Assembly (NCBI GenBank): GCA_964412025.1
Contig: CAYPLY010000001.1
Span: forward strand, 134,922-198,921
DNA: 64,000 nucleotides
From: Candidatus Woesearchaeota archaeon
GTDB lineage: Archaea > Nanobdellota > Nanobdellia > Pacearchaeales > GW2011-AR1
Direction of reading: 5' to 3'
Shown here: positions 15,345-63,622 of the stretch, one piece after another
Position numbering within the stretch: position 1 is the first letter of the stretch
How the letters are laid out: every line of letters begins with the position of its first letter
Made by a program: the position numbers and the translations under genes
The notes under the pieces: generated by a model
The model's input: only the letters and a program-made list of their open reading frames with translations
Database searches by the model: none
What the model was told of the DNA's origin: nothing

Positions 15345-15413
15345 TGATGCCCCGATAGTTCAAAAGATATAAATATCTAGAACTCTCGGAAACGCTGATG
15401 CCCCGATAGTTCA
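15345..15413 (+). repeat. 18-bp direct repeat TGATGCCCCGATAGTTCA (15345-15362 and 15396-15413); duplicated tRNA-Glu 5' end
   Basis: Exact match read from the sequence; the second copy overlaps tRNA positions 1-14. Confidence 0.9.
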
Positions 15414-15571
15414 GAGGCCAAGAACGCCACCCTCTCAAATCATGCCGGAGTTCAATCGATGAGATAATAATTCCAGCCTTCTCTAAGGCAGGCTAGTTAG
15501 TTTTATCGCCTTATATTTTCTTAGGGCGATGGAGTACGGTGGTAACCCGAGTTCGAATCTCGGCCGGGGCG
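15400..15571 (+). tRNA. tRNA-Glu(CTC) with a 99-nt intron (15438-15536) at position 37/38
   Basis: Cloverleaf with anticodon stem CCACC/GGTGG, anticodon CTC at 15434-15436, T arm CCGAG-TTCGAAT-CTCGG; BHB with central helix CTCT/GGAG and 3-nt bulges; near-identical to tRNA-Glu(TTC) at 63550. Confidence 0.92.
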
Positions 15572-15744
15572 TTTATCCTTAGGTTTAACATAGCTATATA
15601 AAACGAATAATTCTGCGTAGAAATGATGCAGTTTTTGAACAGAGAGGTGAAATAAATGGTTTGGTGCTTAGAAAGGGAGGTGAACTAGTTAAATTCTTAA
15701 AAGCTAAACAAAATATTTATAAATTACATATATATCTAATATAT

Positions 15745-15897: not shown

Positions 15898-18800
15898 AAA
15901 ATATTTTTTTGCTTTAATCAGCATAATTTTGATAACACTCTTATCCTATGAGGTTTTAGCAGGGACTAATGTTCCAGATTGTGGAATAACAATCAATATC
16001 TCAGGACAATATGAATTAAACGCGGGAATTTCTGGGACAGCAACTTGTCTAACAATTAATACAAGTAATATAGAACTAGATTGCAAAGGAAATACTATTT
16101 CTTATGGTTCAGATGGAGTTAATGGAAGAATTGGAATATCTGTTGCCCTTGGAACAGTTTATCTTGAAAATATCACAATAAAAAATTGCATAATTCAAGA
16201 CACAAATCCTGCTGGAACCACGGGGTATGGAATATATGCATTAAGAACATCTAATTCATATATAATTAACAATACAATTAATACAAGCGGAACTGCTACA
16301 AATCACGGGATTTATTTATCTACTGCAAGTCAAAATAATCTTCTTGAAAATAATACCATAAATGCTTATGGAAGCACTACAGGAAACTATGGGATTTATT
16401 TAATTTATCAATCAAATAATAACACAATTAGAAACAATGAAGTAAAGGCAACAGGAACAACAACAAGCTATGCACTCATGCTTTATAGCTCAGAATATAA
16501 TTTAATAGAAAACAACAATTTTTCAAGTTACACTCTTTTAACAACAGGAAATTCAGATATGAATGTAGTTTATTTATACTATGGTTCAAGATATAATATT
16601 TTAAGAAATAATTACATTTATTCAGATGCTGAAGCAAGAAATTACCATATTTATCTAAATTTAAATAATAATTATAATATCATTGCAAATAATACTATAA
16701 TTCCAAATGATGATGAAGGAACAAACCCTGGAATTTATATTCTTGGTTCTGATTACAATCTTGTAGAGAATAATACCATTAGAACAAATGGAACAACAGC
16801 CAATTATGGGGTTTGGTTAGGAGCATCTTCAACAGGAAATATGATTAATAAAAATAATATTATCACAAATGGAACTACAACCAACAATTACGGAATTTAT
16901 TTGGTAAGTGCACTTTACAATAATATAACAGAAAATCAGATCTCCTCAAATGGATTAACAACAGGTAATGCAGGAATAACTTTATCAAGTGCCCAAAGAA
17001 ATTACCTTGCAAGAAATAATATTTCTACAAGTGGGACAACAACAGGATATGGAATTTATTTGACTGGTTCTGATTATGACACAGTAGAAGATAATGATAT
17101 TTCTACATTTGGAACAAGCACTGCAAATGATGGAATCTATTTAATCTCTTCTACAAACAATAACATAATAAACAACAGAATAACTGCAAATAGCACCTCT
17201 TCTGGAAATATTGGTATTGCTTTATATACCTCAACAGGAAATTCTTATGTTTATAATAATACTATAAAAACTGATGGAACAACTACAAATTATGGTATTT
17301 TATTACAGACTGCAAATAATAATTCGATAGTAAATAATCAAATATCAACCAGTGGAACAACTACAACAAATCATGGAATTTATCTTTATATAAGTGCAAA
17401 TGCAAACAAAATCTACTATAATAATATCTCTACATATGGCACAACAACAAATCATGGGATTTCACTTAGCACAACTTCAGATGGAAATGAAATTGTTGGA
17501 AATTATATAATAGCTAATGGCTCAACAACAGCCTCCGCAACAACAACAAATAATTTTGGAATTGCTGCTGCTACAAGTTGTTATAATAATCTTATGGAAA
17601 ATAATACAATACTAAATTCCGGAGGAAGGTATAACTATGGTATATATATTTCAGTAGAATCTGGATATTCTACAATTAGAGGAAATAATATTACTACTGG
17701 AGGAAGTGGGGCCACAAATGCAGGAATTTATCTTTCAGAAAGCAGAAACAACCTTCTAGAAGAAAATATAATCTCTACTTCAGGTTCTGCTACAGATTAC
17801 GGTATTTATCTGTATTCTAATGCAAAATATAATTTTGTTAAGAAAAATAATATTACAACCTCAGGAAGTACTAATTCTTATGGAATTCTTCTTGATGCAG
17901 TAATTCCAAACTTCCCCCACAATAATTCTTTTCAAGAAAATAATTTTATTAGTATTGCTGGAACAGAATTTAGATTTGCTGATGCAGAAATAGATGAAAA
18001 TTATTTAATTAGCCAGATTATTGACAGTTACTTATTTACTGGAATTGGAAGCAAAATGATTGTTAGAAATGACTCTGCAGGAGAAATAAAATTCTTAGAT
18101 AGATTAACTGGTTCTGGAACAGGATTTAGTGATGATGTATACATTTTAGAGAATTATGCTTTTATTGATTCGAGTATCCCAGGATTAAACAAGTCAGCAG
18201 AGATAACCATTTATAATTTACCAACAACTTCAAATGAATTACAAATTTACAGGAATGGTATAATCTGCAGTGATTGTTTTAATTTAACTTCAATGCAAGC
18301 AGGAAATGTAACATTTAATGTAACACAAGGAGGAGGATACTCAATTAATTCCTCAAGTTCATCTCCTTTAATAGAATTAGATTTCCCTGAAAATGATTAT
18401 TTAACAAATCAGCAAAATATTAATTTTAATTTTACAGCTAGAGATGATTCTGTAGGAGATTTAAATTGTAGCATTTATATTGATTCTATTTTAAATCAAA
18501 CCAATTCAACAACTCAAAATAATACTCTAACTAATTTTGCTGCTAGTGGATTAACTGAAGGAAATCATAACTGGAATATTGAATGTTTTGATTCAGCAGG
18601 AAATAGAAATATTTCTGAAACAATAAATTTTACAATAACAATTTCACAATCATCCTCATTATTTAATTATCCAGAGAATAAATCTTATTTTAATAATTTA
18701 GACTTTATATTGTTAAATTATACTGTTTTAGATTTAGATTTAAAGATAATGACTGCTTGGATTTATGGGGATGAAATTCTTCTAAATACAACTTCAGGAT

Positions 18801-21800
18801 TAACTAATGGTTCATCTTTAGTTTACAATTGGACAAGTTTAGATTTAGGACAATATAACTGGTCTATAATAATCTGGAATGGAATAAAGAACTCTTCTAT
18901 TGAATATTCTTACTTTAATAATATTAATTTAACAATAAATTGTGAAGCAGGAGGAGATTATCTTGAAGATCCAACTGTTTTAATTCAAGGAAGAATAAAT
19001 GACAGTAGCGGGATAGTTTCATTAAGTTCACAAATAATTAATATTTCTATTTACAATGATTCCACAGAGGAAATAATCACTTCTTCAAATATAACCACAG
19101 AATCAAATGGTGTATTTAATAGTATATTTCCTGGATTGGAAATAGGAAATTACACTGTTTATACAAAAGTTAATTATCAAGGAATTGAAATAAATAGTTC
19201 AGACTCATTTAAAATTTCTCTTGGATATGAAGCAGGTTACAATGCAGGATTTATTGCTGGAAATGAATCAGGATATATTTCTGGATTTGATTATGGTAAT
19301 ATCACAGGATTTAATTTAGGAAATATCACAGGATTTATACTTGGAAACAATACTGGTTTCACATTAGGAAATACAACTGGATTTGTATACGGTAACCTCA
19401 CAGGATTTGTTTTAGGAAATTCAACTGGTTACATTTTAGGTAATGCAACTGGATTTACATTAGGAAATTATACCGGGTTTATATTAGGAAATCAAACAGG
19501 ATTTATAATAGGAAATATTTCAGGTTTCAATCTTGGTAATTCAACCGGTTTTACACTTGGAAATTATACTGGATTCATATTAGGAAACATTTCAGGATTC
19601 TACTTTGGAAACCAGACAGGTTATACTACAGGTTACAATGCAGGATTTATTGCTGGAAATGAATCAGGATATATTTCTGGATTTGATTATGGTAATATCA
19701 CAGGATTTAATTTAGGAAATATCACAGGATTTATACTTGGAAACAATACTGGTTTCACATTGGGCAACTCAACTGGTTATACCTTGGGATTTAACACAGG
19801 TAATATAACCGGATTTACTCTAGGTAATACTACCGGCTTTGTATACGGAAATAATACTGGTTATATTTTAGGATTTAATACAGGCAACTTAACAGGCTTC
19901 ACATTAGGAAACACAACTGGCTTCGTTCTTGGCAACTCTACAGGTTATGTTTTAGGAAATGCAACTGGCTTTGTATATGGTAACACAACAGGATTCATAT
20001 TAGGAAACACAACGGGATTTGTATATGGAAATATCACTGGATTTGCTTTGGGTAATTCAACAGGATTTACACTTGGAAATTTAACAGGTTATATTCTTGG
20101 AAATCAAACAGGTTATAACGCAGGATTTACAACAGGAAACACAACTGGATTTAATCTAGGAAATACTACAGGTTTCACATTGGGCAACTCAACTGGTTAT
20201 ACCTTGGGATTTAACACAGGTAATATAACCGGATTTACTCTAGGTAATACTACCGGCTTTGTATACGGAAATAATACTGGTTATATTTTAGGATTTAATA
20301 CAGGCAACTTAACAGGCTTCACATTAGGAAACACAACTGGCTTCGTTCTTGGCAACTCTACAGGTTATGTTTTAGGAAATGCAACTGGCTTTGTATATGG
20401 TAACACAACAGGATTCATATTAGGAAACACAACGGGATTTGTATATGGAAATATCACTGGATTTGCTTTGGGTAATTCAACAGGATTTACACTTGGAAAT
20501 TTAACAGGTTATATTCTTGGAAATCAAACAGGTTATAACGCAGGATTCAGCACAGGAAACACAACTGGATTTAATCTAGGAAATACTACAGGTTTCACAT
20601 ACGGAAATCTTTCAGGATTTGATCTAGGTAATGCCACGGGTTATACCTTGGGTTATAATGCTGGTGTTAATGTTAGCAATCGCACTTCAGCATCCCTAGT
20701 CTTGGATAAGATTGCAAGTTTGCAAAATATAACAAATGGAACTATTTCATATAATGTAACTTTAAGATTAACAAACAAAGGAGGAAGCAATTCAACAAAT
20801 GTTAACATAACAGATTTAGATTATGGTTCTAACTTTACAATTGGAAATTTAACAGCAGGAGAATCAATTACAAGAAGCTATCTTATTAATTTCACAAGAA
20901 ATATGACAACATATTCAAATGCAACATCAATTGCTCATGCATATGGTATTGATTCTTATTCATCTGGACAAATTTTGGCAAACTCTAGCTCAATGAATTT
21001 ACCTGTCCCATCAAATGAATCTGGGCAGCAATTAACTTTGATTAAGAATGTATTTTATATTAATCAAACATTCACAGATGTAAATTATACTGTTAGTTTT
21101 GAAGTTATTAATTCCGGAGGATCAGATTTAACAGGGATTACAATAATTGATGACGATTTGGGTATTTCTGATGTAATAAGCTTGAGTAAAACACAAAGTT
21201 ATACCTACTCGGGATCATTAATAATATCTAAGAATCAGGATAATAAAGAGCAAATATTTTCAATAGCAAGAGGAACTGTAAATGCTGTTATTTATTCTTC
21301 AAATCAAATAAAAGTTTTAATTCCAGGATATGGTGGAGGTCCAAATGATGTAAGCATTAATGCTCCTACATCTGTTTTTAATAACACCAATTTCAATGTG
21401 GATATAACTGTGAAGAATAAAAATAAAGACATAGGCCAGGACTTTGTTGTAACTTATTGGCTCTTGAGCAATGACGAGATTTCAATATATTCAACTGGAG
21501 CTCAAACTCTTTATGTTGGAGGAAATGATAATACCAATGCAACTACAATTGTATTCTTATCTCCTGCAATTAATGGAACATATAAAATAAGGGCAAATGT
21601 GAGCGGAACAGGAGTAAGTGTTCAAGCTACTGCTTTTTCAACAATTCTTGTTACGTATCCTTCAAATGAAACTGCAAATGAAACTCCAGTAAATCCTCCG
21701 CACGGAGGAGGTGGAGGTAGCAGAATAAGCTGTGTATATATCTGGGAGTGTGGTTCTTGGAGCCTATGTGCAGATGATGGAACTCAATCAAGAACATGTA

Positions 21801-31965: not shown

Positions 31966-33483
31966 ATGGCGTACAAAAAATACATTAAAAGGAACGGAAA
32001 ACTTTATGGTCCATATTTATATGAGAGTAAAAGAGTTGACGGAAGAGTAGTTTCTGAATATCACGGAAGTGAGGAGCCAAAAAAAAGCAAAGGAGTGCAG
32101 GTTAGAGATTATAGAAAAACATTATTTATTTTTTTAGGAGTTTTCATCTTTGTAGGACTTATTTATTTTCTTGTAACGGTTCCAAACTACAATGGTTTTT
32201 CAGGAAAGGCAGTTTTAGATATAGAGTCTTTTTATGTTGACGGAGAGCCTCTTGAGGGTATTTTGAAGTTTTCTTTTAAGGAAGGAGAGTTCATCCCTGC
32301 TTCTTCTAAAGTAATTTTTGAAGGTTCTAACGAGAATTACTCATTTATCTTGAGTGATATCTTGAAAGAAGATTCTTTAGAAGGAAATTATTATGTCGAG
32401 GGAAAATCTTTTAGTGGAGAGGGATTGGGTTATGGAAAGGAGGGTGAAGTTAAGGTTTATCCAGAGGTTAGTTTTATTCTTCAGATTTATAAGGAATTAC
32501 CGGAAGAGGAGAATTTGGAGGAAGAGAATACCGAATTAATTGAAGATGATACAAATGTTAATCTTGATGAGGTAAATCAGGATGAGACAACTGAGGAAGA
32601 TACTTCAGTTCCAATAACCGGAGGGGTTATTAAGAATTCTGGAGGATTCTTAACTTCTTTATTCAATCCTACAGGGATGGTTTCTCTTGAACTTCAGGAT
32701 GAGATTCAGGGGGAGACATCTGCGAATGAATCATTTACTTATCTTTTAAATGAAGGGGAGAGGGTTGAGATAAAGCCCAAGAGCGTTTTTGTTGGGGATG
32801 AAGAGGTTAGTGATAATACTATCACTTTGGAAATTTTAGATGGAGAGGCAATTATAACTACAGATTACTCTGTTGTAAAAAAGGGTTATGGAGAGGAATA
32901 TCTTGGAGATAAAGATAAGGTATTTTCATTAGACCTATCAGATTTAAATTTAACATTTAAAGAAGGAGATTTAAATGTTAAATTGGTTTATGAAGAGGAA
33001 GAGATGATTCATTTGTCTACCTCTCTTAAGGAGGGGGAAGATGCTCTAGAAGAGATAATTGATGAAGAAACCGATGAAGAATCAGATATTGTTGAGGATA
33101 TTGTTGAGATCCCTAAAGAGTTGGAATCTCCAGAAGATATTGTTTTAGAAAACGAAACTGTTGATGAAATTACAAACTCTTCTGTGTGGGATATTGGAAG
33201 TTTCCTAACTTCTGAAGAGAGGGCAATTCTTAAATCAAATTTTGGAGAAATTGAACTTAAAACAGTTAAGTCAGAGTTATTTAAGGATAGGATTATTGTA
33301 GCATATGATTTTGGAGGATATAATGTGGAATACTCTTATGATTCCTCTACCGATAAAGATGTTTTAGATATTTATATGGAGAAGGATAGAATAAAATTCT
33401 TAAAAGATATAGCCGCTTCCGTTTCCAAAGAAGAAACTTCTTCTACCAAATTAGAAATACTTAATGAGAGTTATCTTCCCTGA
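31966..33483 (+). CDS. Membrane-anchored acidic surface protein with N-terminal cytoplasmic KRNGKLYGPY motif
   Basis: Basic N-terminal domain, one TM helix, long Glu/Asp-rich extracellular part. Confidence 0.75.
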   Translation: MAYKKYIKRNGKLYGPYLYESKRVDGRVVSEYHGSEEPKKSKGVQVRDYRKTLFIFLGVFIFVGLIYFLVTVPNYNGFSGKAVLDIESFYVDGEPLEGILKFSFKEGEFIPASSKVIFEGSNENYSFILSDILKEDSLEGNYYVEGKSFSGEGLGYGKEGEVKVYPEVSFILQIYKELPEEENLEEENTELIEDDTNVNLDEVNQDETTEEDTSVPITGGVIKNSGGFLTSLFNPTGMVSLELQDEIQGETSANESFTYLLNEGERVEIKPKSVFVGDEEVSDNTITLEILDGEAIITTDYSVVKKGYGEEYLGDKDKVFSLDLSDLNLTFKEGDLNVKLVYEEEEMIHLSTSLKEGEDALEEIIDEETDEESDIVEDIVEIPKELESPEDIVLENETVDEITNSSVWDIGSFLTSEERAILKSNFGEIELKTVKSELFKDRIIVAYDFGGYNVEYSYDSSTDKDVLDIYMEKDRIKFLKDIAASVSKEETSSTKLEILNESYLP

Positions 33484-34911: not shown

Positions 34912-37029
34912 CTATTCTTGGTCTTTATGATTGTTTAATTTTTCTATTCCCTTAATAGGTAATATCTCTTCTCTTATACTCTCCTTAGGAATATATTTTC
35001 TTGGCTCTTTATCAGTTCCTTTTATTAAAATATCTTCTAGCTCTTTAATATCTTTTGTTAATTCTTCTGCGTATTCTGGAGAGATACTTATGCTATTAAT
35101 TTCGTTTTCAATTAAAAATTTTATAAGTTCTTTATTTGCTTCATTGTCAGTGTAAATGTTACTTTCTATATTTTTTCTTCTGCAAACTCTTATTACATAT
35201 GAAATCTGATAAAGCACTGCTGGATTTAGTTCGTCATACATCTCCTTAACTTCTGGATTTTCTCTATCTATAGAAAGTATATTTTGGGTTAGACAATTGA
35301 TTCCAATCGTTACTAGTTCCAGATTTTCATCACAAATTTGATTTATTAATTGTACAGCCGAGGGGGTTTCAATCGAAACTCCTACTTTTGCTTCATTAAA
35401 TTCTATTTCATCCAGTATTTCTTTGAATTTTCTAATTTCATCGATTAAAGTGATATTAGGTATTATTATCACTATCTTCTTTCCTAGCTGGCTTATTCTT
35501 TTTAGTGCATTTAACTCTGCTTTCAGTATTTCAGCATTTTTTAGAAGGAATCTTATACCATGTAATCCCATTTTAGGGTTAGTTTCTTTTTCTTTTGGAG
35601 AACCTTCTAATAATAAAAGTTCGTCACTTTTTATATCAGAATTTTTTACCCAAATTTCATTGAAATCTTCTGATATTTTTCTCACTCCCTGGAAGATTAT
35701 CTCTTCGTACTCTTGAATATTTCCGGTTTCTATGAAGTAATTTGGATGTTTCCCAGATTTGGATATTATTTCTTCAATCCTTATTAATCCTATAGATTTT
35801 ATGTTGGTCTCTAAATAGTTCTCTGCTATTTCTTTTGGACCCATAATTAATTTTACTTTTGTTTTTGTTTGTTGCATCTCCATCTTTTGTTTTTTCTCTG
35901 TCTCAGGAGATTCTTCAATTAGTTCAGTATTCTCTTCCTCCAAATTCTCCTCTTCCGGTAATTTCTCTTCAATTTTATTATCTTCCTTACTCTCTTTTGC
36001 TTCTATTATTTCTTCTATTTCTTTTGTTTGTACAAGGTATATATCTTCTCCCTCAATTGCAAACTCTATCTCCTGGGGTTTTTTATAATATTCTTCAATA
36101 TTTAGTGCTAGCTGTGAGAGTTTTATAATCTCGCTTTTTGTAAGTGTTTGTTGTCGGGATTTTTCCTCTCTCAATCTAATTGCAGTCTTGTTGCCAGATG
36201 AGTCTCTTGTTATTGCTATTTTCTTCTCTCCTTCTTTTACGTTAGTTATTTCCAAATTTCTATTGAGAGTATATTCATCTGGGTTTATCTCTTCAAAAGA
36301 CATTCCTTCTCCAAGACCCCATATGGATTTTATGATTATATTGTTTTCTTTGTTGCTTATGTCTTTAGATAAAATTATCCCGGATTTTGTAGAGTCAACC
36401 ATTTTTTGAACAACGATTGCTATTTCAGAAGGATAAGGATTTAATCCTTTTTTATTTCTGTATATAATTGCATTGGGAGAAAATAGGGATGCAAAGCATC
36501 TTTTTATATATTCTAGGAGCTGATAAGTACCCTTTATATTTAAAAAAGAATCAGGTTTTTCTTGAGAATTTTTTGTTCTAGTACTCCCTCTTACTGCAAC
36601 AAAAATTGGTTCGTGTGCATTTTGTAATATATCTAGTGCAGAGCCGTATACCTCGCTCAAATCGCTTGCGCTAAGAGTCTCGTACGCTTCTATTATCTCT
36701 TCCTCCAAGTTATTTGGCATTCTTGCTTCAATTATGTTATTTCTTATTACCTCAGAAATATCTTTTAATTGATTTTCATTTTGATAATTTATTTTTTCTA
36801 ATTGTCCCTTTATGAGATTCGTTAATCCGGAGTTTTCAATAAAGTACTCATAAGCCTGTGAGGATATAATAAATCCTGGAGGCACAGGAAATTTTAAATT
36901 ATATATTTCGCTTAGATTTGCTCCTTTTTCTCCTGCAATTGTACCAGAATTCTTATTTAGCTCAGAAAACCACTTTATAAAACAAGTTTCATCACTAGGA
37001 TTATTCCCTTTATTCCCCTTTTGGATCAT
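34912..37029 (-). CDS. Degenerate PEP synthase (PpsA)-like protein lacking the phospho-histidine domain
   Basis: GEKGANL, PVPPGF, AVRGS, VQKMV in the N-domain; IGLIRIEE, IETPSA in the C-domain; no TSHAAI motif between them. Confidence 0.8.
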   Translation of the reverse strand: MIQKGNKGNNPSDETCFIKWFSELNKNSGTIAGEKGANLSEIYNLKFPVPPGFIISSQAYEYFIENSGLTNLIKGQLEKINYQNENQLKDISEVIRNNIIEARMPNNLEEEIIEAYETLSASDLSEVYGSALDILQNAHEPIFVAVRGSTRTKNSQEKPDSFLNIKGTYQLLEYIKRCFASLFSPNAIIYRNKKGLNPYPSEIAIVVQKMVDSTKSGIILSKDISNKENNIIIKSIWGLGEGMSFEEINPDEYTLNRNLEITNVKEGEKKIAITRDSSGNKTAIRLREEKSRQQTLTKSEIIKLSQLALNIEEYYKKPQEIEFAIEGEDIYLVQTKEIEEIIEAKESKEDNKIEEKLPEEENLEEENTELIEESPETEKKQKMEMQQTKTKVKLIMGPKEIAENYLETNIKSIGLIRIEEIISKSGKHPNYFIETGNIQEYEEIIFQGVRKISEDFNEIWVKNSDIKSDELLLLEGSPKEKETNPKMGLHGIRFLLKNAEILKAELNALKRISQLGKKIVIIIPNITLIDEIRKFKEILDEIEFNEAKVGVSIETPSAVQLINQICDENLELVTIGINCLTQNILSIDRENPEVKEMYDELNPAVLYQISYVIRVCRRKNIESNIYTDNEANKELIKFLIENEINSISISPEYAEELTKDIKELEDILIKGTDKEPRKYIPKESIREEILPIKGIEKLNNHKDQE

Positions 37030-53618: not shown

Positions 53619-54224
53619 TCACTTCTCCACAATAAAGTTAATCATCATTTCGCTATTGTGTGTTGAGAGAATTTTAAATCCTGTAGATTTGAATAATTTA
53701 TGTATTTCATCTTCTTCAAAAAGATAATAGTATCTTTCTCCCTTGTCAGTCCATTTTATTAGTTTTTCTTTTCCTTGTTTTTGGTTGAATCGTTTGGACT
53801 GGAAATTCCAAACTCCAATAAGTACTTTCCCTTTTTTCTTCATAACTCTGTATAATTCAGCAATTGCTTTTTTATGATATTCTGGAGGTAAGCAGTGAAG
53901 TGCAGATATTGAGATTGCGTAATCAAAAAAATTGTCTTTAAATGGTAAGTTTTTGGATATATCTGCAACTATAAATTCTCCAGGAACCTTTAATTTAGTT
54001 GCTTTCTTTTTTGCAAGTTTAATCATTTCTTCTGAAAAATCAACTAGATACATTTTCCCTCCTTTTATCTTTGTGAGGTGTCTTCCTGAACCAGATCCCA
54101 AATCTAAGACATTTCCTGTGCAACAGGTTAGGAATTCTTTGCTGAATTCTGAAGGGGTTTCTTTGAACTCATGCCATTCTTTTGCAATGTTGTTCCAGAC
54201 TTGTTGTTGAGTTGGAGTTTCCAT
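53619..54224 (-). CDS. Class I SAM-dependent methyltransferase
   Basis: VLDLGSGSGRH, VDFS, LPFKDNFFD, ALHCL. Confidence 0.88.
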   Translation of the reverse strand: METPTQQQVWNNIAKEWHEFKETPSEFSKEFLTCCTGNVLDLGSGSGRHLTKIKGGKMYLVDFSEEMIKLAKKKATKLKVPGEFIVADISKNLPFKDNFFDYAISISALHCLPPEYHKKAIAELYRVMKKKGKVLIGVWNFQSKRFNQKQGKEKLIKWTDKGERYYYLFEEDEIHKLFKSTGFKILSTHNSEMMINFIVEK

Positions 54225-54225
54225 T

Positions 54226-55053
54226 TTATAAGCTATCCAAGGGGGATTTTATCTTTGATAAATCTTTTGTGGATACATGTGTGTATACCTCAGTTGTTTT
54301 TAAATCAGAATGTCCTAGCAATTTTTGTATATGTCTTATATCTGTGCCCTGCTCTAATAAATGTGTTGCAAAACTATGCCTTAACATATGTGGAGTTGCT
54401 TTAATTCCTGCTTTTTTTCCAGCTTCATCCAAAACTTTCTGGACGGACTTTTTTGTGTATTTTCCATCACGTCCTTCAAAAACATATTCTGTGTGGAAAG
54501 TATTATTACTGTAGTATTTCAGTAAATCTAATTTTAATGCATCTGAAATAATAGTTACCCTATCCTTTTTCCCTTTTCCCTTTTTGACATTAAGAATATT
54601 TCTCTCAAAGTCAATATCTTTTCTCTTTAAATCAATTAGCTCCTGAAGCCTCAGTCCTGAAGAGTAAAGAAGTTTTATTATCAGTTTATGCTTTAAATTG
54701 TCTGTTAAATTAATCATTTCTTTAATTTTTTCTTTTGAGATAACTTTTGGAAGTTGTTTTTCTTTTTTCTTTATAGGAACTTCCTCAAATGAAAAAGATT
54801 TTCTTAATATCTCTCTGAAAAAGAAACTTATGGAGGCATACTGCAACCTTGAGGAGTTTATACTCAAATTTTGTGATAATAAATATAATTTAACACTGTC
54901 ATTTGATAGATTAAGTCTACTTTTGGAAAGAAAATCTAAAAATTTTCCTGTGTGATATACATAAGATTTGATTGTTTGGTTAGAAAATCCCTTTAAAATA
55001 CATGTTTCTTTTAGTTTTTTTAGATATTCTTCTTTATCTGAAGTATAATTCAT
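54226..55053 (-). CDS. Tyrosine recombinase, XerA/integron-integrase-like, 275 aa
   Basis: N-terminal GFSNQTIKSY SAM-like domain; catalytic R (GLRLQE), K (KGKKDR), HxxR (HMLRHSFATH), H (LGH), Y (EVYTHV). Confidence 0.95.
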   Translation of the reverse strand: MNYTSDKEEYLKKLKETCILKGFSNQTIKSYVYHTGKFLDFLSKSRLNLSNDSVKLYLLSQNLSINSSRLQYASISFFFREILRKSFSFEEVPIKKKEKQLPKVISKEKIKEMINLTDNLKHKLIIKLLYSSGLRLQELIDLKRKDIDFERNILNVKKGKGKKDRVTIISDALKLDLLKYYSNNTFHTEYVFEGRDGKYTKKSVQKVLDEAGKKAGIKATPHMLRHSFATHLLEQGTDIRHIQKLLGHSDLKTTEVYTHVSTKDLSKIKSPLDSL

Positions 55054-55093
55054 AAAGGAACTTTAACTTCATTTTATTTAAAGATATATGTGT

Positions 55094-55121
55094 AAGATAA
55101 TAACCTTTGGGTTATAATCTA
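55094..55121. promoter_or_regulatory. 11-6-11 inverted-repeat site AAGATAATAAC-CTTTGG-GTTATAATCTA (putative recombinase binding site)
   Basis: Arms 9/11 complementary; 41 bp upstream of the recombinase ATG. Confidence 0.6.
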
Positions 55122-55128
55122 CTTTTCA

Positions 55129-55156
55129 AGTAGATATAATAGATGTTATATTCAAT
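55129..55156 (+). other. dif/attI-like recombination junction AGTAGATATAA-TAGATG-TTATATTCAAT (left cassette boundary)
   Basis: TATAA-N6-TTATA core of Xer-type sites; GATGTTAT repeated at the right boundary (59070-59077). Confidence 0.75.
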
Positions 55157-55293
55157 TTTTGGATTACTCAAGACGGAAAAGAGAGAGGGGCTTAGTCCTT
55201 CGGACATTTTGCCTTTTACTTCGTAAAAGAATTTATAGGAAGGAGCGTCAAGATAGTCTTTTTCTACGAAAAAGAAATTTACTAGGTGGCGTC
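55156..55293 (-). repeat. Structured GACGC-hairpin repeat element after the M1 stop codon (inverted homolog of 58696-58849)
   Basis: Shared AGTAATCCAAAAA (13 bp), GCCCCTCTCTC (11 bp), GACGC units with T/A-rich hairpins, GTCC-TTCG-GAC. Confidence 0.75.
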
Positions 55294-56079
55294 TTAACAA
55301 TAATCCTTTAATTTAGTATTCTTTTTATGTTTACTTATTCTTTTATTCGCTAACTCGATGTATTCCTTATTATTATCTATGCCAATCCAATTTCGATTTA
55401 ATTGCATGGATGCCAAAGCAGTTGTTCCACTTCCCATAAAGGGGTCAATAACAATGTCTCCTTCATCTGTTGCCATCTCAATTAATCTTGTAAATAATTC
55501 TAAGGGTTTTTGAGTTGGATGTGCTGCTCTCCCATTTTCTCCTTTAATTCTTTCAGAACCTTGACAAACTGGAAACTCCCAAACATCTTTTAACTGCTTA
55601 CCTTGATTATACTTTTTCATATTGTTATAATTAAATTTCCATCCTTTCCCCTTTGCAAACCATGCAATAAATTCCGTAGAATGAGTTAATGTTCTTTTCG
55701 TAATACTTGGCATAGGATTTGTTTTTCTCCATGTTATCAGATTAATAAATTTGTATCCTTTATCTTTTAAAGCTACAATTACTTCTCCTATATTATGTAA
55801 AGAACCACAAACCATCATCGAACCATTTGGAGCAAGAATCTTATCAGCCTCATCAATCCATTTTTTTGTAAAGTCCATATAATCTTCATAAGAGAATTTA
55901 TCCCATTTTTCATTTACTTTGTAATATGCTCCACCTGTTTTATTATCTGGCAGATTTACTCCACCATTTGATGCATTATATGGTGGGTCAGTTAATACTA
56001 AATGAATTTTTCCTTTAGGAAAATCCCCCATTATCTTTATACAATCTCCTTCATGATTTTTATTTATTACATTATTCAT
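55294..56079 (-). CDS. N6A/N4C DNA methyltransferase, beta class (M1)
   Basis: TDPPY, HPTQKP, DPFMGSGTT in beta-class order. Confidence 0.93.
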   Translation of the reverse strand: MNNVINKNHEGDCIKIMGDFPKGKIHLVLTDPPYNASNGGVNLPDNKTGGAYYKVNEKWDKFSYEDYMDFTKKWIDEADKILAPNGSMMVCGSLHNIGEVIVALKDKGYKFINLITWRKTNPMPSITKRTLTHSTEFIAWFAKGKGWKFNYNNMKKYNQGKQLKDVWEFPVCQGSERIKGENGRAAHPTQKPLELFTRLIEMATDEGDIVIDPFMGSGTTALASMQLNRNWIGIDNNKEYIELANKRISKHKKNTKLKDYC

Positions 56080-57908
56080 GCTAAAATACCTTCTTTTTCA
56101 TATTTTTGAAGAATTGTATTAGATTTTCTCGCCCAATCATCAACATCTTTGGAATCTATTGCGACATTATGTAGTGTTAATAATAATTCTTTAAACTCGT
56201 TATGAGTAATTGGTTTATTTTCTAATTTTTTTATTAACACTCTTTTTAATATTTTTAAAAATTGAGTTATGCTCAGAGGAATTATTTTTTGTTTTTCTCC
56301 CTCATACTCATATTTGTTTGAAAAGCTAAATGTGTTAAAAGTATCTCTGTGAATTCTTGGGGCAATAAACAAACAAAAAGAATTATCATTATTTTTAATT
56401 TCAAAATCTCTTAAATGCCTCATAACTGGTTGTCCTTCATTAATCCATTGACTTCTACTTACTAACATAGTAACTTCACAAATCATATTGAAAGATTCAT
56501 AAACACATTCTATATCTGGAACATTGGCTGGTGCTGTAAAAGTTGGTCTGTTATCATCTCCTACAGGATAATTAGGCTGTATTTTCAAGGCGTCATTAAT
56601 CGCATGTAAGCATAACGTTGTTAGGTGTTCTAGTTCTATTGATTGGCTTTTATCACTTCCATGAATATTTTCAAGAGTTTTGATTACTTCCTTAAAATTA
56701 TCAGCATTAGCTAATTCTGTATGATTAATATACTCCTGCACTCTTCGCCTAAGAATTCTTAAATCTGCCATTATTGGTTTTAATTCATTAACTCTCAATG
56801 ATTCAATGTTTACTTCAAATAATTTTTTCTCTAAAGTTAATGGTTTGCTTAGAGATTTGTTTAATTCAAATATTTCTTTTCTAAGGTTCACAATAATATT
56901 TTTTAATTTGTCTTGTGTATCCCATGGATAGATTACATCAGAATCCATATAATCAAGGTATTCCTCAAGAGTTTTGAATTTCAAACCTTCACCATTACTA
57001 TATTCCAGAAGAGAGGTTATTTCAACATTTCTTCTCGGTTCTAAATCAATATAGAAACCACCACCACGAATATAAAAGAATCTTGTTATCTTAAAATATC
57101 GGATTGCATTATCACCATAATCTTTTAAATTATGAAAGTTTATATCGAGATGTTTTCCTTCGGGATCTTCAAAGAATTTTTTAGTTTTATCTGTAAAACA
57201 ATCTTTTTTTATTGCAGTTTGTTCTTTTTTGTCTTTACCTTTTAATTTATTTCTTAATGCAATAATTTCATTAACTGTTTTAGGGATGTCATCATAATTA
57301 ATTGTAGTTGGCACAAAATAACAAAATTCATGTTTAGAAATTCCGACAGGTTCATTCCCTAATTTTTTCCATTTCTTGTTTACTTCATTGATAATATGAA
57401 GAGTTGTAATAAATGGTCTTACATTAAAACCATTTTTTTCAGAAAACTCTTCATTATCTGGATTTGGTAAAGTCCATTTAAAGAAATATTCTAAGAAAAT
57501 TTCTCCCATGTCGAAATCTTTTTGTAAAAATTTCTTTCCAAAATTTGTGATGTATAGTTTACTTACTGTTTGTTTAGATACAACCAAACCCATTTTACTA
57601 AGCGGGGCAATAGATGTCCTTCCTCTTAGCCCAGGGTCATCTTTTAAAACAGTAGATTTTTCTTTCATATGTTCAAAAATTTCTTTTGCTTCTTTTTCTG
57701 ACATATCAGAAGGAGAATTATAATAGCCCGATAATTTTTCATTAAGGCCTGTTGGTTTATACAGCTTTCTTTTAATCAATGCTATTTGAAATTTTATCTG
57801 TTGATTCTCATTAAATTCAACACCCTCAAAATCTTTAAGAACTTCCAAAAACCCCCTAATTCTATCGGGATTTCTTACAGTAGTTGAAATTGACCATGCT
57901 CTTTTCAT
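56076..57908 (-). CDS. AlwI-family type IIS restriction endonuclease
   Basis: WSISTTVRNPDRI N-terminus, DYGDNAIRYF, APANVPDIE...EVT, EGQPVMRH, FIAP; flanked by two MTases. Confidence 0.8.
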   Translation of the reverse strand: MKRAWSISTTVRNPDRIRGFLEVLKDFEGVEFNENQQIKFQIALIKRKLYKPTGLNEKLSGYYNSPSDMSEKEAKEIFEHMKEKSTVLKDDPGLRGRTSIAPLSKMGLVVSKQTVSKLYITNFGKKFLQKDFDMGEIFLEYFFKWTLPNPDNEEFSEKNGFNVRPFITTLHIINEVNKKWKKLGNEPVGISKHEFCYFVPTTINYDDIPKTVNEIIALRNKLKGKDKKEQTAIKKDCFTDKTKKFFEDPEGKHLDINFHNLKDYGDNAIRYFKITRFFYIRGGGFYIDLEPRRNVEITSLLEYSNGEGLKFKTLEEYLDYMDSDVIYPWDTQDKLKNIIVNLRKEIFELNKSLSKPLTLEKKLFEVNIESLRVNELKPIMADLRILRRRVQEYINHTELANADNFKEVIKTLENIHGSDKSQSIELEHLTTLCLHAINDALKIQPNYPVGDDNRPTFTAPANVPDIECVYESFNMICEVTMLVSRSQWINEGQPVMRHLRDFEIKNNDNSFCLFIAPRIHRDTFNTFSFSNKYEYEGEKQKIIPLSITQFLKILKRVLIKKLENKPITHNEFKELLLTLHNVAIDSKDVDDWARKSNTILQKYEKEGILA

Positions 57909-57977
57909 AATATTTTACCCCTCATACTATCTTAAAAGCCAACATATTTAAATATTATGCGTTTTAGGGGTTATATT

Positions 57978-58697
57978 ATGGCAAAAAAGAATGTTGATTT
58001 GAAAAAAGGGGAATGTGTAAGTATTCTTAAGAAAATGCCAGACAATTCCGTAGATATGATATTTGCAGACCCTCCTTATAATCTTTCTGGAAAAAATCAT
58101 ATTACTTGTGTTAATGGAAGAAAAGTAAAATGTGATAAAGGTATTTGGGACATGGTCGCAGATATTGATAAATTTAATTATGATTGGATAAAAGAGTGTA
58201 TGCGTGTTCTAAAGGATGATGGAACTATCTGGATTTCAGGAACATTACATAACCATCCTTCTGTTGGCTTTTTACTTAAAAAAATGGGATACTGGATAAT
58301 AAATGATATTGTTTGGTTTAAACCAAATGCTCCCCCTCAATTACAACCTAATAGACTTGCTCCATCTACCGAGATGATTTGGTTAGCGAGTAAGACAAAA
58401 AAATATTATTTTGATTATAAAAAAGCAAAGGAAATTAATGACGGAAAACAAATGAGAAACCTTTGGACTATTAATGCTCAAAGACATATCACAAATCACC
58501 CTACTGAAAAGCCAGAACTTCTTTTAGAAAGGATAATTCTTCTTGGAAGTAAAGAAGGCGATGTTATCTTAGATCCTTTTATGGGTTCAGGAACAACAGG
58601 AGCAGTCGCTAAAAAGTTAAATAGAAGTTTTATAGGGATTGAACTTGACGATGAATTCTTTGAAATTGCAAAAGATAGAATAAATAATACTAAATGA
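57978..58697 (+). CDS. N6A/N4C DNA methyltransferase, beta class (M2)
   Basis: FADPPY, HPTEKP, DPFMGSGTT; ATG 57978. Confidence 0.93.
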   Translation: MAKKNVDLKKGECVSILKKMPDNSVDMIFADPPYNLSGKNHITCVNGRKVKCDKGIWDMVADIDKFNYDWIKECMRVLKDDGTIWISGTLHNHPSVGFLLKKMGYWIINDIVWFKPNAPPQLQPNRLAPSTEMIWLASKTKKYYFDYKKAKEINDGKQMRNLWTINAQRHITNHPTEKPELLLERIILLGSKEGDVILDPFMGSGTTGAVAKKLNRSFIGIELDDEFFEIAKDRINNTK

Positions 58698-58849
58698 CGC
58701 CCCTAAATGTTCTTTTTAGAAAAGAACCAAAACAAGACGCCCCTTCTATCTTCTTTTTTAGAAAAAAGAAGCAAAAAATCTGACGCCCCTCTCTCGTCCT
58801 TCGGACATATTCACTCGCCTTTGGCTCGAATTTATCAGTAATCCAAAAA
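58696..58849 (+). repeat. Three GACGCCCC units (58696, 58736, 58782) with intervening hairpins, after the M2 stop codon
   Basis: Hairpins GTTCTTTT/AAAAGAAC and CTTCTTTTT/AAAAAGAAG; TTCG-loop hairpin at 58796. Confidence 0.8.
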
Positions 58850-58909
58850 CTCTAAAATTTTGCCTTCGGCATCGTTGCACTAAATTTTAGGTCTTCCCGT
58901 TGGTCAGAC

Positions 58910-59080
58910 GAATATAACAGGGCTTAACCGACTACGAAACCTTGCAGGTTTCTCCGTCCAAATTTTGCCCCATCTCTGAAAAAATTCTCAGCTCTGTTTC
59001 GGTTTTGTGGGTTGCCTCAAAACCTCACGAGGAGAATTTTTTCGAGGGGTCAAAACTTCGTTTAAGCCCGATGTTATGTG
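58910..59080 (+). other. attC-like ssDNA hairpin recombination site (~170 nt)
   Basis: ATAAC/GTTAT outer stem, GGGCTTAA/TTAAGCCC, TTTTGCCCC/GGGG-T-CAAAA with an extrahelical T, GAAAAAATTCTC/GAGAATTTTTTC, GGTTTTG/CAAAACC. Confidence 0.78.
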
Positions 59081-59110
59081 CAATCTAGAAATATCTTGTT
59101 TATTCAATCA

Positions 59111-60388
59111 TCATTCTCCCTCAAACTTAATAAGGCTAAAGAAAGGATATTTTGAAATCTTTTCTTTTCCTTTTAATTCCGGAAGTTCCATAACAAACAT
59201 ACACCCAATAATTTGTCCCCCTACTTTTTCAATAAGGTTTACAGCTGCTTTAACTGTTCCACCTGTTGCAATTAAATCGTCAACAAGTAATACTTTTTGT
59301 CCTGGTTTTATAGAGTCTTTATGTATTTCAACTGCATCCTCTCCATACTCCAAAGAATAACTTTCTTTTACTGTTTCGTAGGGTAATTTTCCTGGCTTTC
59401 TTATTAAAGCTAATCCTGCATTTAACTTTTCAGCTAAAAGGCCTGCAATGATAAAACCCCTTGATTCAATTCCTGCAACTATATCTATTGGTATTTCATA
59501 ACATTTTTCGTAAAGTATTTCTGTAAGTTTTTTAAGAGATTCTCTATCTTGAAGGAGAGGAGTCACATCTTTAAACATAATTCCTTCTTTTGGAAAGTTT
59601 GGAATTGTACGTACTTTTTCTTTTAGTTTTTGAATTTCTTGTTCTCTTGAAAAAGAGTTTATCGCATCAAAAATAACTTTTTTGACACGTTCAGCATTTT
59701 CCTTCATATTATTTTTTATTGTTAACCAATCTACTGGTTCTTCATCTTCTTTCCAGCAGTCATAATCCGTTGACATTGCTATTGTTGCATATTGTACTTC
59801 TGCCTCGTTTGCAAGAATGGCTTCAGGAGATGTAGACATATTTATTATATCTCCTCCCCATTGTCTGAAAAGGTGGCTTTCTGCTTTGGTTGAGAATCTT
59901 GGCCCTTCTATTGTTATAACTGTTCCAGTTTTATGGTATGAGAATTTTAATTTTTCACAGCTTTCAGTTAGCTTTTTTCTTAATTCTTCCGAAAAAGGAT
60001 TTGCCATGGGAGTGTGGATTGGACCAAATTCAAACTTATCAAAAAAGGTTAGTTTTCTGTTTTTTGTAAAATCAATAAATTGATCTGGAATAATAAAATC
60101 TCCTCTCTTTATTTCTTCTCTAAGTGAGCCCGCGGCTGTTGTTGAGATTATAAATTTACAACCTTCATTTTTTAGTGCAAATATATTTGCACGATTGTTT
60201 ACTTCTGTTGGAGGGATTTCATGTTTTATCCCATGCCTTGAAATTATAAAGACATCTATGCTCCCTATCTTTCCAATTGTCAATGGAGAAGATGGTTTTC
60301 CAAAAGGGGTTTCTACTTCTTTTGTTTTGTAATCTGTAAGAATCTCTGGATTCTCAAGCCCAGAACCACCTATTATACCAATTTTCAT
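59111..60388 (-). CDS. Fused methylthioadenosine phosphorylase (MTAP) - adenine phosphoribosyltransferase (APRT)
   Basis: IGIIGGSG, RHG, IEGPRFSTKAES, TDYD, then PNFPKEGIMFKD, GIESRGF, RKPGKLP, LLVDDLIATGGT; ATG 60388. Confidence 0.92.
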   Translation of the reverse strand: MKIGIIGGSGLENPEILTDYKTKEVETPFGKPSSPLTIGKIGSIDVFIISRHGIKHEIPPTEVNNRANIFALKNEGCKFIISTTAAGSLREEIKRGDFIIPDQFIDFTKNRKLTFFDKFEFGPIHTPMANPFSEELRKKLTESCEKLKFSYHKTGTVITIEGPRFSTKAESHLFRQWGGDIINMSTSPEAILANEAEVQYATIAMSTDYDCWKEDEEPVDWLTIKNNMKENAERVKKVIFDAINSFSREQEIQKLKEKVRTIPNFPKEGIMFKDVTPLLQDRESLKKLTEILYEKCYEIPIDIVAGIESRGFIIAGLLAEKLNAGLALIRKPGKLPYETVKESYSLEYGEDAVEIHKDSIKPGQKVLLVDDLIATGGTVKAAVNLIEKVGGQIIGCMFVMELPELKGKEKISKYPFFSLIKFEGE

Positions 60389-63498: not shown

Positions 63499-63549
63499 GT
63501 TTAAGCTAATTCTCATTAATTTAATAAGATTATTGTGATTAAAATTAAG

Positions 63550-63622
63550 CGCCCCGACCGAGATTCGAACTCGGGTCACGGCCGTGAAAGGGCCGCATTC
63601 TTGGCCTCTGAACTATCGGGGC
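63550..63622 (-). tRNA. tRNA-Glu(TTC), intronless
   Basis: GCCCCGA/TCGGGGC acceptor, CGGCC-CTTTCAC-GGCCG anticodon arm. Confidence 0.96.

Follow-up and report, generated by a model that had tools for sequence, protein, structure and literature searches.

A long attC-like hairpin as the probable boundary of mobile cassettes beside a XerA-family recombinase in Woesearchaeota

We analysed a 64,000-nucleotide stretch of DNA from Candidatus Woesearchaeota archaeon (GenBank assembly GCA_964412025.1, contig CAYPLY010000001.1, positions 134,922 to 198,921), called the window below, in which a three-gene restriction-modification system separates a hairpin of about 170 bases (58910-59081, + strand) from a gene for a XerA-family tyrosine recombinase. 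With a probability that we put at roughly 80%, the hairpin is the recombination site that closes a mobile cassette, within an integron-like system in which this adjacent recombinase acts. It belongs to a family of elements that occur in arrays and have covarying stems; crossover falls within GATGTT(A), identical recombinases are accompanied by differing cassettes, and the window recombinase is without the domain specific to IntI integrases. We infer that the adjacent recombinase is the catalyst, because a linkage of about 90 nt is fixed in nearly all of more than 40 loci, and covarying stems together with one-sided features point to within-strand pairing as the functional form. A first-pass annotation, made from the letters of the DNA, had proposed a recombination site of a long archaeal attC family linked to variable genes, and this proposal is borne out by arrays of a single orientation beside orthologous recombinases, by covariation, by a rule that governs the junctions between elements and by homology breakpoints at GATGTT. 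The outcome that it had named as fatal, a conserved RNA that is unconnected with variable genes and shows no relation between the two feet R'' and R', did not emerge from the comparison.

Structure of the hairpin

Every pairing listed in the first-pass annotation was located in the sequence and in the minimum-free-energy (MFE) DNA fold. The outer stem joins ATAACA (58914-58919) to TGTTAT (59072-59077), with a bulged GA (59070-59071) on the 3' side; GGGCTTAA (58920-58927) then pairs with TTAAGCCC (59062-59069), and above a C.T mismatch (58928/59061) CGA pairs with TCG. The upper stems are TTTTGCCCC/GGGG(T)CAAAA, GAAAAAATTCTC/GAGAATTTTTTC and GGTTTTG/CAAAACC. All stem pairs are Watson-Crick, with no G.T pair among them. 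Folding of both strands of 58910-59081, which had been suggested as a check, gave an MFE of -39.6 kcal/mol (z -6.5) for the + strand and -43.1 kcal/mol (z -8.4) for the - strand, values that none of 200 shuffles equalled in either case. The hairpin (42-45% GC) lies in a non-coding stretch of 413 nt (58698-59110) with a GC content of 40-45%, against about 30% in the genome and flanks, so the impression that it is richer in GC than its surroundings was correct.

Read from 5' to 3' on the + strand, the element begins with the R'' foot GAATATAACA (58910-58919), made of six variable nucleotides and AACA and complementary to 55144-55153 near the recombinase gene. There follow a paired central spacer and L'' box, GGGC-TTAA-C-CGA (58920-58931), and a side hairpin confined to the 5' arm, GAAACCT-TGC-AGGTTTC (58936-58952). 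A three-way junction carries an unpaired motif of the CCCAAA type (58957-58962; TCCAAA in the window), and the variable terminal stem-loop (58963-59055) measures 0-90 nt in other members of the family. The L' box and paired spacer, TCG-T-TTAA-GCCC (59058-59069), come after a conserved ACTTC, and the GA bulge and R' foot, TGTTATGTGC (59070-59081), complete the element and contain the crossover motif GATGTT. The extrahelical T seen earlier in GGGG(T)CAAAA is present, but it belongs to the variable upper stem and is not conserved across the family; what is conserved in unpaired form is the GA bulge, the CCCAAA motif and, frequently, a mismatch at L-box position 9. The TAA-N6-TTA geometry that had been noticed in the left half is indeed common to the hairpin (ATATAA-CAGGGC-TTA, 58912-58926) and the site near the recombinase (ATATAA-TAGATG-TTATAT, 55134-55151).

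An accessory hairpin (CTAAAATTT...AAATTTTAG, with an inner GCC-TTCG-GC hairpin) occupies 58852-58891 of the + strand. Its counterparts precede some other members of the family, with 96% identity over 55 nt in locus L096 and 83% in L102.

Neither a repeat search nor the covariance model described below found a second copy of the hairpin in the window, and a scan of viral contigs with the hairpin-foot pattern gave no match. When the window was searched against Rfam 15, only three tRNAs reached the gathering score, and 58600-59200 gave chance-level matches at E<=10. Known structured RNAs (SRP RNA, RNase P RNA and other large RNAs) were rejected for lack of an Rfam match, and a likeness by eye of ACAGGGCTTAAC to the CR-V/P4 region of RNase P was dropped because the strand order is wrong. 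Scans of the window for sigma-70 promoters and intrinsic terminators were uninformative, the host being archaeal.

Boundaries of the cassette

The genes follow in the order recombinase, N6/N4 methyltransferase, AlwI-family endonuclease, second methyltransferase, non-coding stretch with the hairpin, and MTAP-APRT fusion (59111-60388, - strand). In relatives, where MTAP-APRT is 80-92% identical, this gene lies only 30-93 nt from the S-adenosylmethionine (SAM)-methyltransferase gene that in the window stands on the other side (53619-54224), which marks 54225-59110 (4.9 kb) as an insertion. The whole platform of recombinase and cassette is absent from the MTAP-APRT locus of six such relatives (L001-L006). 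We also considered that the whole island might be a single integrative element, with 54225 and 59110 as the places of its att repeats, an idea set aside when the left edge gave only a weak match of 10/15.

Within this insertion, two GATGTT motifs (55142-55147 and 59070-59075) bound a gene cassette of about 3.9 kb at 55148-59075 (+ strand). The motifs belong to a direct repeat of 15 nt. One copy, GATGTTATATTCAAT (55142-55156), lies between the genes for the recombinase and the first methylase; the other, GATGTTATGTGCAAT (59070-59084), is the hairpin's 3' foot. All 10 positions of the 5' foot, GAATATAACA, are complementary to TGTTATATTC at the left junction, and the dif-like site GATGTTATATTC beside the recombinase likewise complements the foot 10/10, whereas 7 of 10 positions are complementary to the hairpin's own right foot. 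The crossover can be placed inside GATGTT(A) and no finer. The recombinase itself is a resident gene of that lineage and lies outside the cassette, because the closest relatives keep the synteny of recombinase, methyltransferase and threonyl-tRNA synthetase (ThrRS). By Pfam search, the cassettes in the window and in L102 encode no recombinase.

A family of covarying elements

The comparison set comprised 57 loci from species-representative genomes, 46 from metagenomes and a further 12 contigs retrieved for two near-identical proteins. The names attached to homologous proteins and loci point to a DPANN archaeon of the Woese-/Pacearchaeota type (Nanoarchaeota in GTDB). Parts of the window hairpin turn up again on the upstream side of the recombinase in L102, L096, L082, L137 and others. 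Arrays contain up to seven elements; those of L102 (Archaeon BMS3Abin17) number seven, in a single orientation with one open reading frame (ORF) between each, and they fold like the window element. The family consensus reads n6-AACA-(paired spacer and L'')-stem-side hairpin-CCCAAA-variable stem-loop-ACTTC-(L' and spacer)-GA-TGTT-n6-AAT, with element lengths of about 85-172 nt. AACA and TGTT are invariant (AACA in 18/18 elements), and foldable imperfect inverted repeats of the R''(..AAC)-L''...L'-R'(GTT..) form thus close cassettes here as they do in integrons.

The stems change in sequence and keep their pairing. In 18 distinct elements the basal stem is 92% paired and 10 of 16 pairs have changed on both sides (43 cells), a result that none of 500 shuffles matched and that compares with 39-46% pairing in slid controls; for the L box these figures include elements selected in part on complementarity at positions 1-7. 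L-box position 9 is mismatched in 10 of 23 elements. For 13 full elements RNAalifold predicted 28 pairs, of which 20 are compensated, including basal positions outside that selection and all seven pairs of the side hairpin, whose position is conserved. The paired spacer and L'' box covary with 59058-59069 across the family, and in the unpaired junction motif the columns C49 C50 A51 A52 A53 are invariant or nearly so.

A covariance model (R1) was built from these 13 elements and used to search the window and related loci, as had been proposed. R1 finds the window hairpin as its single match there (58910-59081, + strand, 71 bits, E 1e-16), against 14.8 bits on the opposite strand. Across 677 kb of loci it gives 33 matches at E<1e-3, every one on the strand opposite the recombinase gene and 31 of them upstream of it; in the relatives L001-L005, which have no recombinase, it gives none. 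An independent pattern scan returned 16 matches in 111 kb of upstream sequence in the + orientation and 10 in all other sequence and orientations.

Several further observations concern the family. The same system of recombinase and hairpin occurs in bins labelled Pseudomonadales, Methanosarcinales or 'bacterium' (L112, L105, L108, L126), which are either mis-binned DPANN contigs or cases of spread beyond DPANN. Mere fragments of recombinase genes adjoin elements at L101 7774-8370, L126 1094-1255 and L129 10001-10135 and may be decayed platforms or rearranged arrays. 'Cassettes' of 100-200 nt without an ORF stand between consecutive elements at L135 33-506 and L183 473-584, L135 having three elements within 500 nt. 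Hybrid elements, with 5' and 3' L boxes of different types and poor pairing, occur at L102 6969-7096, L102 3476-3596 and L137 79-250, the last with nearly the entire upper stem of the window hairpin on other L boxes; their composition suggests recombination within elements.

A junction rule

In integrons the crossover lies inside R' (G|TT), so the bases after GTT belong to the next cassette and complement the R'' of that cassette. We examined 32 junctions from model-defined elements, with the recombinase-proximal site counted as the first. Of the six variable bases that follow TGTT, a mean of 5.22 match the foot of the element that comes next, compared with 2.84 of 6 for the foot of their own element; 27 of the 32 match the next foot at five or more positions, and none of 20,000 permutations reached the observed total. 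An earlier, pattern-defined set of elements had given 5.17 and 2.87. In the window, the site on the recombinase side matches the hairpin foot at all six variable bases, so that the circularised cassette would have a perfectly paired foot of 10 bp. As in integrons, the cassette carries an R' tail complementary to its own R'', which argues that the boundaries of the elements are cassette boundaries of the integron type.

The insertion site and its recombinase

The site beside the recombinase gene (55129-55156, + strand) has an 11+6+11 layout of 28 bp, AGTAGATATAA / TAGATG / TTATATTCAAT, and can be described as attI-like or dif-like. Its left arm and GATGTT are conserved, and its right arm derives from the cassette. 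The two arms share only TAA/TTA and a few bases, and the right arm changes with the first cassette; the dif layout fits. More than 40 loci have enough upstream sequence, and nearly all of these carry the motif AGAynTAATAnaTGTT at a distance of 87-93 nt from the recombinase start codon, on its upstream side; a variable TTAnnnnnAAT comes next. A small conserved palindrome, ATCTACTT-TTC-AAGTAGAT (55117-55135), overlaps the left arm and also occurs upstream of orthologous recombinases; its possible roles are those of a second binding site and of an operator within the promoter region of the recombinase.

The site is polymorphic among otherwise identical platforms. Nine contigs from different samples encode an identical recombinase (P0124) and share 95 identical upstream bases that end in GATGTT, beyond which there are at least five unrelated continuations with different genes. 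BLAST alignments between the window and several relatives also stop right after GATGTT, and about 25 contigs terminate 35-230 nt upstream of the recombinase gene, as would be expected at a polymorphic site. By these computed comparisons, a fixed insertion point of the G|TT kind adjoins the recombinase as attI adjoins an integron integrase. The tail of the hairpin itself, TTATGTGCAAT, looks like an arm of the insertion site and was probably its original right arm; the same arm is found at the recombinase-proximal site of L084.

The recombinase (54226-55053, - strand; 275 aa; Pfam Phage_integrase and SAM_4) has the catalytic motifs and is the presumed cassette integrase. It passes the NCBIfam model for archaeal XerA (recomb_XerA_Arch, NF040815; 224.9 bits against a cut-off of 220) and fails that for integron integrases (TIGR02249; 203.6 bits in two pieces against a cut-off of 265). 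Its best match in the PDB is Pyrococcus abyssi XerA (4A8E, E 1e-47), with a colinear alignment. Against Vibrio cholerae IntI4 (2A3V) it aligns in two blocks, 9-173/4-173 and 204-274/247-319, and because 30 residues replace 73 in IntI4, the IntI-specific insert is absent (about 43 aa missing). As judged from the sequence, the protein is thus intact and XerA-like, and is not an integron integrase in the defined sense, which includes the additional domain around patch III. Its homologues number in the hundreds at 70-95% identity. Site and element are the same even in L108 and L112, where the recombinase is just 42-45% identical.

Cassette contents

The window cassette carries a whole three-gene type IIS restriction-modification system of the AlwI family, an unusual cargo. 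It comprises the N6/N4 DNA methyltransferase M1 (55294-56079, - strand; Pfam N6_N4_Mtase, E 3.9e-62), an AlwI-family type IIS restriction endonuclease (56076-57908, - strand; RE_AlwI, E 5.9e-87) and the N6/N4 DNA methyltransferase M2 (57957-58697, + strand; N6_N4_Mtase, E 1.3e-58). An exact database look-up of three window proteins found nothing. Elsewhere the cargo includes a GNAT acetyltransferase, methyltransferases, a peptidase C39 protein and many ORFs without a Pfam match, and such accessory or uncharacterised cargo is typical of cassette arrays.

Inverted, degenerate units of the form 'GACGCnnCn plus small palindrome' flank the restriction-modification genes. Three exact GACGCCCCT units, each followed by a small palindrome (two of them T-rich), lie at 58696-58810 (+ strand), the first at the M2 stop codon, and a degenerate mirror copy of these units follows the M1 stop codon (55160-55293, - strand). 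T-rich palindromes recur after genes in related loci, and those of the window and their mirror copy are therefore most simply taken as probable transcription terminators ahead of the hairpin, bidirectional in appearance. The idea that GACGC is the recognition site of the restriction-modification system was dropped as pure speculation. A search of viral contigs for the pattern GACGCCCCT-N-GACGCCCCT gave 71 matches, which are probably due to chance because only 18 bases are specified.

Proposed mechanism and alternatives

We propose that the cassette at about 55148-59075 would have been inserted at the dif-like, attI-like site about 90 nt upstream of the recombinase gene. In a self-folded strand, pairing would join the two feet (GAATATAAC / GTTAT...) and also the boxes next to them (GGGCTTAA/TTAAGCCC), and the resulting duplex would mimic a Xer core site, with one arm, a central region of 6 nt with the 2-nt GA bulge on one strand, and a second arm. 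This duplex would be capped by the three-way junction with its side hairpin, unpaired CCCAAA and variable stem. The recombinase would cut within GATG|TTA and swap strands with the same motif beside its gene, so that the cassette is inserted or is excised as a circle. The junction expected in a circular cassette is ...TTAAGCCCGATG|TTATATTCAATTTTTGG (59073 joined to 55146), and the empty site is expected to read ...ATAATAGATG|TTATGTGCAATC. By analogy with integrons and CTXphi, the substrate would be single-stranded DNA, or a cruciform, resolved by replication, with a choice of strand; the architecture is strand-asymmetric, with R1 scoring 71 bits on the + strand against about 15 bits on the - strand.

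Several points weigh against this proposal. Excision and circular cassettes are predicted from assembled sequence, all of the comparative sequences are metagenome assemblies, and the partial selection of elements noted above touches the L-box statistics. Folding energy favours neither strand and the stems have no G.T pairs, which makes a double-stranded or cruciform substrate possible. The central spacer is paired, unlike that of a canonical attC, whose unpaired spacer matters to its function, and the recombinase lacks the domain that integron integrases use on extrahelical bases. Cassette ORFs run in both directions (in the window, L102 and L082) and the window cassette has three genes, unlike typical integron cassettes. 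Finally, a few junctions in L082 violate the junction rule, probably because of mis-registered or decayed elements.

The alternative that survives best, although we consider it unlikely, is conventional double-stranded Xer/dif recombination, in the manner of integrative mobile elements exploiting Xer (IMEX) or of pdif modules. Circular double-stranded cassettes with a dif-like site (L'-GATG-TTAnnnnnCAAT) would join a chromosomal dif-like site through XerA, and the potential to form a hairpin would merely follow from the presence of a second, inverted copy of the site, or would serve only as a cruciform or platform for protein binding. The recombinase is a bona fide enzyme of the XerA type, the site beside its gene has the 11+6+11 dif layout, the all-Watson-Crick stems fold equally well on both strands, and the junction rule is predicted equally well; P. 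abyssi XerA, moreover, recombines double-stranded dif without partners (PMC2958812). The duplex at the cassette end, however, has no recognisable left arm, TTCGTTTAAGC matching AGTAGATATAA at only about 2-3 of 11 positions. Moreover, every element keeps the inverted 5' copy, and its L box and spacer covary through many sequences (GGGC/GCCC, GCGA/TCGC, AGGG/CCCY, GGAAT/ATTCC), which argues for selection for pairing within a strand and not for a fixed protein-binding sequence. The one-sided conserved features (the GA bulge, the side hairpin and the unpaired CCCAAA) have meaning only when the element is folded.

Covariation alone cannot separate pairing in RNA from pairing in DNA, and the element could also be thought of primarily as a structured RNA (a 3' untranslated region element, a terminator, an insulator or a small RNA of the restriction-modification operon) with a secondary link to the recombinase. 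It is rich in GC and strongly structured in an AT-rich genome, the covariance model is strand-asymmetric, and loops of the cUUCGg type lie just upstream on the + strand. We nevertheless regard this explanation as very improbable. No Rfam family matches the element, even at E<=10; two T-rich terminator-like palindromes separate it from the M2 stop codon; and adjacent ORFs face it from either side in different cassettes, so that it has no constant position in a transcript. Nor does an RNA account for the junction rule or for homology breakpoints at GATGTT.

Least probable of all is a selfish palindromic repeat, such as a miniature inverted-repeat transposable element (MITE) or a repetitive extragenic palindrome (REP), piling up in a variable region: the hairpin is an imperfect palindrome of MITE-like size with many copies per locus in some genomes, but there is a single copy in the window, none was found in L001-L005 or in the roughly 355 kb that lie downstream of recombinase genes, the orientation is strictly uniform, and neighbouring elements exchange feet and show no target-site duplications.

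Other features of the window

Three observations lie outside the cassette system. A tRNA-Glu(CUC)-like gene at 15400-15572 (+ strand) is split directly behind the anticodon loop by about 95 nt of inserted sequence, and its halves are 88-89% like the tRNA-Glu(UUC) gene at 63549-63622; since both ARAGORN and Rfam (at the gathering score) missed it, we take it as probably an intron-containing archaeal tRNA. An inverted repeat of 62 nt, 90% complementary, lies at 32485-32546 and 35912-35973 inside two genes on opposite strands, both of which encode the acidic peptide LPEEENLEEENTELIE (in a 505-aa protein and in a 705-aa enzyme of the PEP-utilising type). A very large ORF region at 16300-20700 with periodic repeats of 81 nt and 24 nt (families D1-D5) is apparently a gene for a beta-helix or surface protein.

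Relation to known systems

Integrons are defined by an integrase whose special domain reads the extrahelical bases of a folded attC. The elements described here resemble integron attC sites in their imperfect inverted repeats R''-L''...L'-R' with an AAC...GTT core and variable terminal structure, in a crossover of the G|TT type and in a cassette that starts with an R' tail matching its own R''. Their arrays, too, have one polarity and lead away from a divergent tyrosine recombinase gene with an adjoining insertion site, and the cargo is of the same accessory or uncharacterised kind (GNAT, methylases, a restriction-modification system). The geometry AAC-5/6 nt-TTAA is within 1 nt of the canonical one, as in attC_Nanoarchaeota (ACATAAC-AAATCA-TTCAACCGG). 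The differences are as clear. The recombinase scores as XerA and has no IntI-specific domain. In place of an unpaired spacer and extrahelical L-box bases, the spacer is paired and covaries (GGGC/GCCC and variants) beside a 2-nt GA bulge; a conserved three-way junction (side hairpin and unpaired CCCAAA) is present; the elements are longer, at about 85-172 nt; and the flank ACTTC ... CAAT is strongly conserved in sequence. Integron cassettes carry co-oriented, mostly promoterless ORFs read from Pc, whereas ORFs here occur in both orientations with several genes possible per cassette, and those of the window cassette are divergent and convergent.

Archaeal integrons have been reported by Ghaly et al. 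2022, who used bacterial attC models and found six IntIs with the additional domain, most arrays being without an integrase (PMC9668308). The Nanoarchaeota attC that they tested is a site of 60 nt of the bacterial type with unpaired spacers (PMC9668308), and one of their CALIN (clusters of attC sites lacking integron integrases) contigs comes from the same assembly as our locus L081 (PMC9668308). The motifs of the present family (GATGTTA and CCCAAATT) were looked for in the supplement of that study and are absent from it. A search of full-text literature turned up no publication that describes attC-like arrays together with a Xer-type recombinase in DPANN archaea; its coverage leaves out most subscription journals, and the result therefore does not prove novelty. 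The system described here may be a source of integrase-less CALIN arrays in archaea.

Among systems that use Xer recombinases, the single-stranded route has a precedent in CTXphi, whose folded attP(+) is reportedly recombined by host XerCD at dif (Val and colleagues, in 2005). IMEX of the CTXphi type share several traits with the present system: a recombinase of the Xer family, a hairpin (about 150 nt) with a stem that mimics the dif core and has an imperfect centre, integration next to a dif-like site of mobile DNA without its own recombinase, and tandem arrays. The cassettes here are likewise mobile DNA without a recombinase, sitting at a Xer target site beside xerA. CTXphi differs in being a filamentous phage genome and not an array of single-gene cassettes, and the site here adjoins the recombinase gene. 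The pdif modules of Acinetobacter plasmids, in which XerC/D sites flank resistance modules, are also separate blocks of genes that have Xer-type sites at their ends and move with no recombinase dedicated to them, but their sites are single 28-bp duplexes in alternating orientation, in contrast to covarying hairpins of one polarity. Archaeal XerA/dif, which resolves chromosome dimers, offers the same recombinase family and the same 11+6+11 bp core layout. The Thermococcales dif is a single conserved 11+6+11 site that is not adjacent to xerA, and the archaeal dif sites described to date are of this kind (Cortez et al. 2010, PMC2958812), whereas here the first cassette determines the right arm and a cassette array has its entry point at the site.

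If the adjacent recombinase is the catalyst, the extra IntI domain is not needed for cassette capture, a major route by which accessory and defence genes turn over in the tiny genomes of DPANN archaea is identified, and the evolutionary link that has been proposed from Xer/dif through single-strand integration of the CTX type to integrons becomes directly testable. The covariance model and the junction rule provide a means of annotating arrays that now break metagenome assemblies, and the recombinase with its site is a candidate for a compact tool for site-specific insertion. Overall, we lean towards the view that in Woese- and Pacearchaeota of the DPANN group a XerA-type recombinase without the IntI-specific domain runs true cassette capture, with its own class of long attC-like sites (paired spacer, three-way junction) and a dif-like attI, and would represent either a living model of the transition from Xer systems to integrons or an independent invention of the integron principle.

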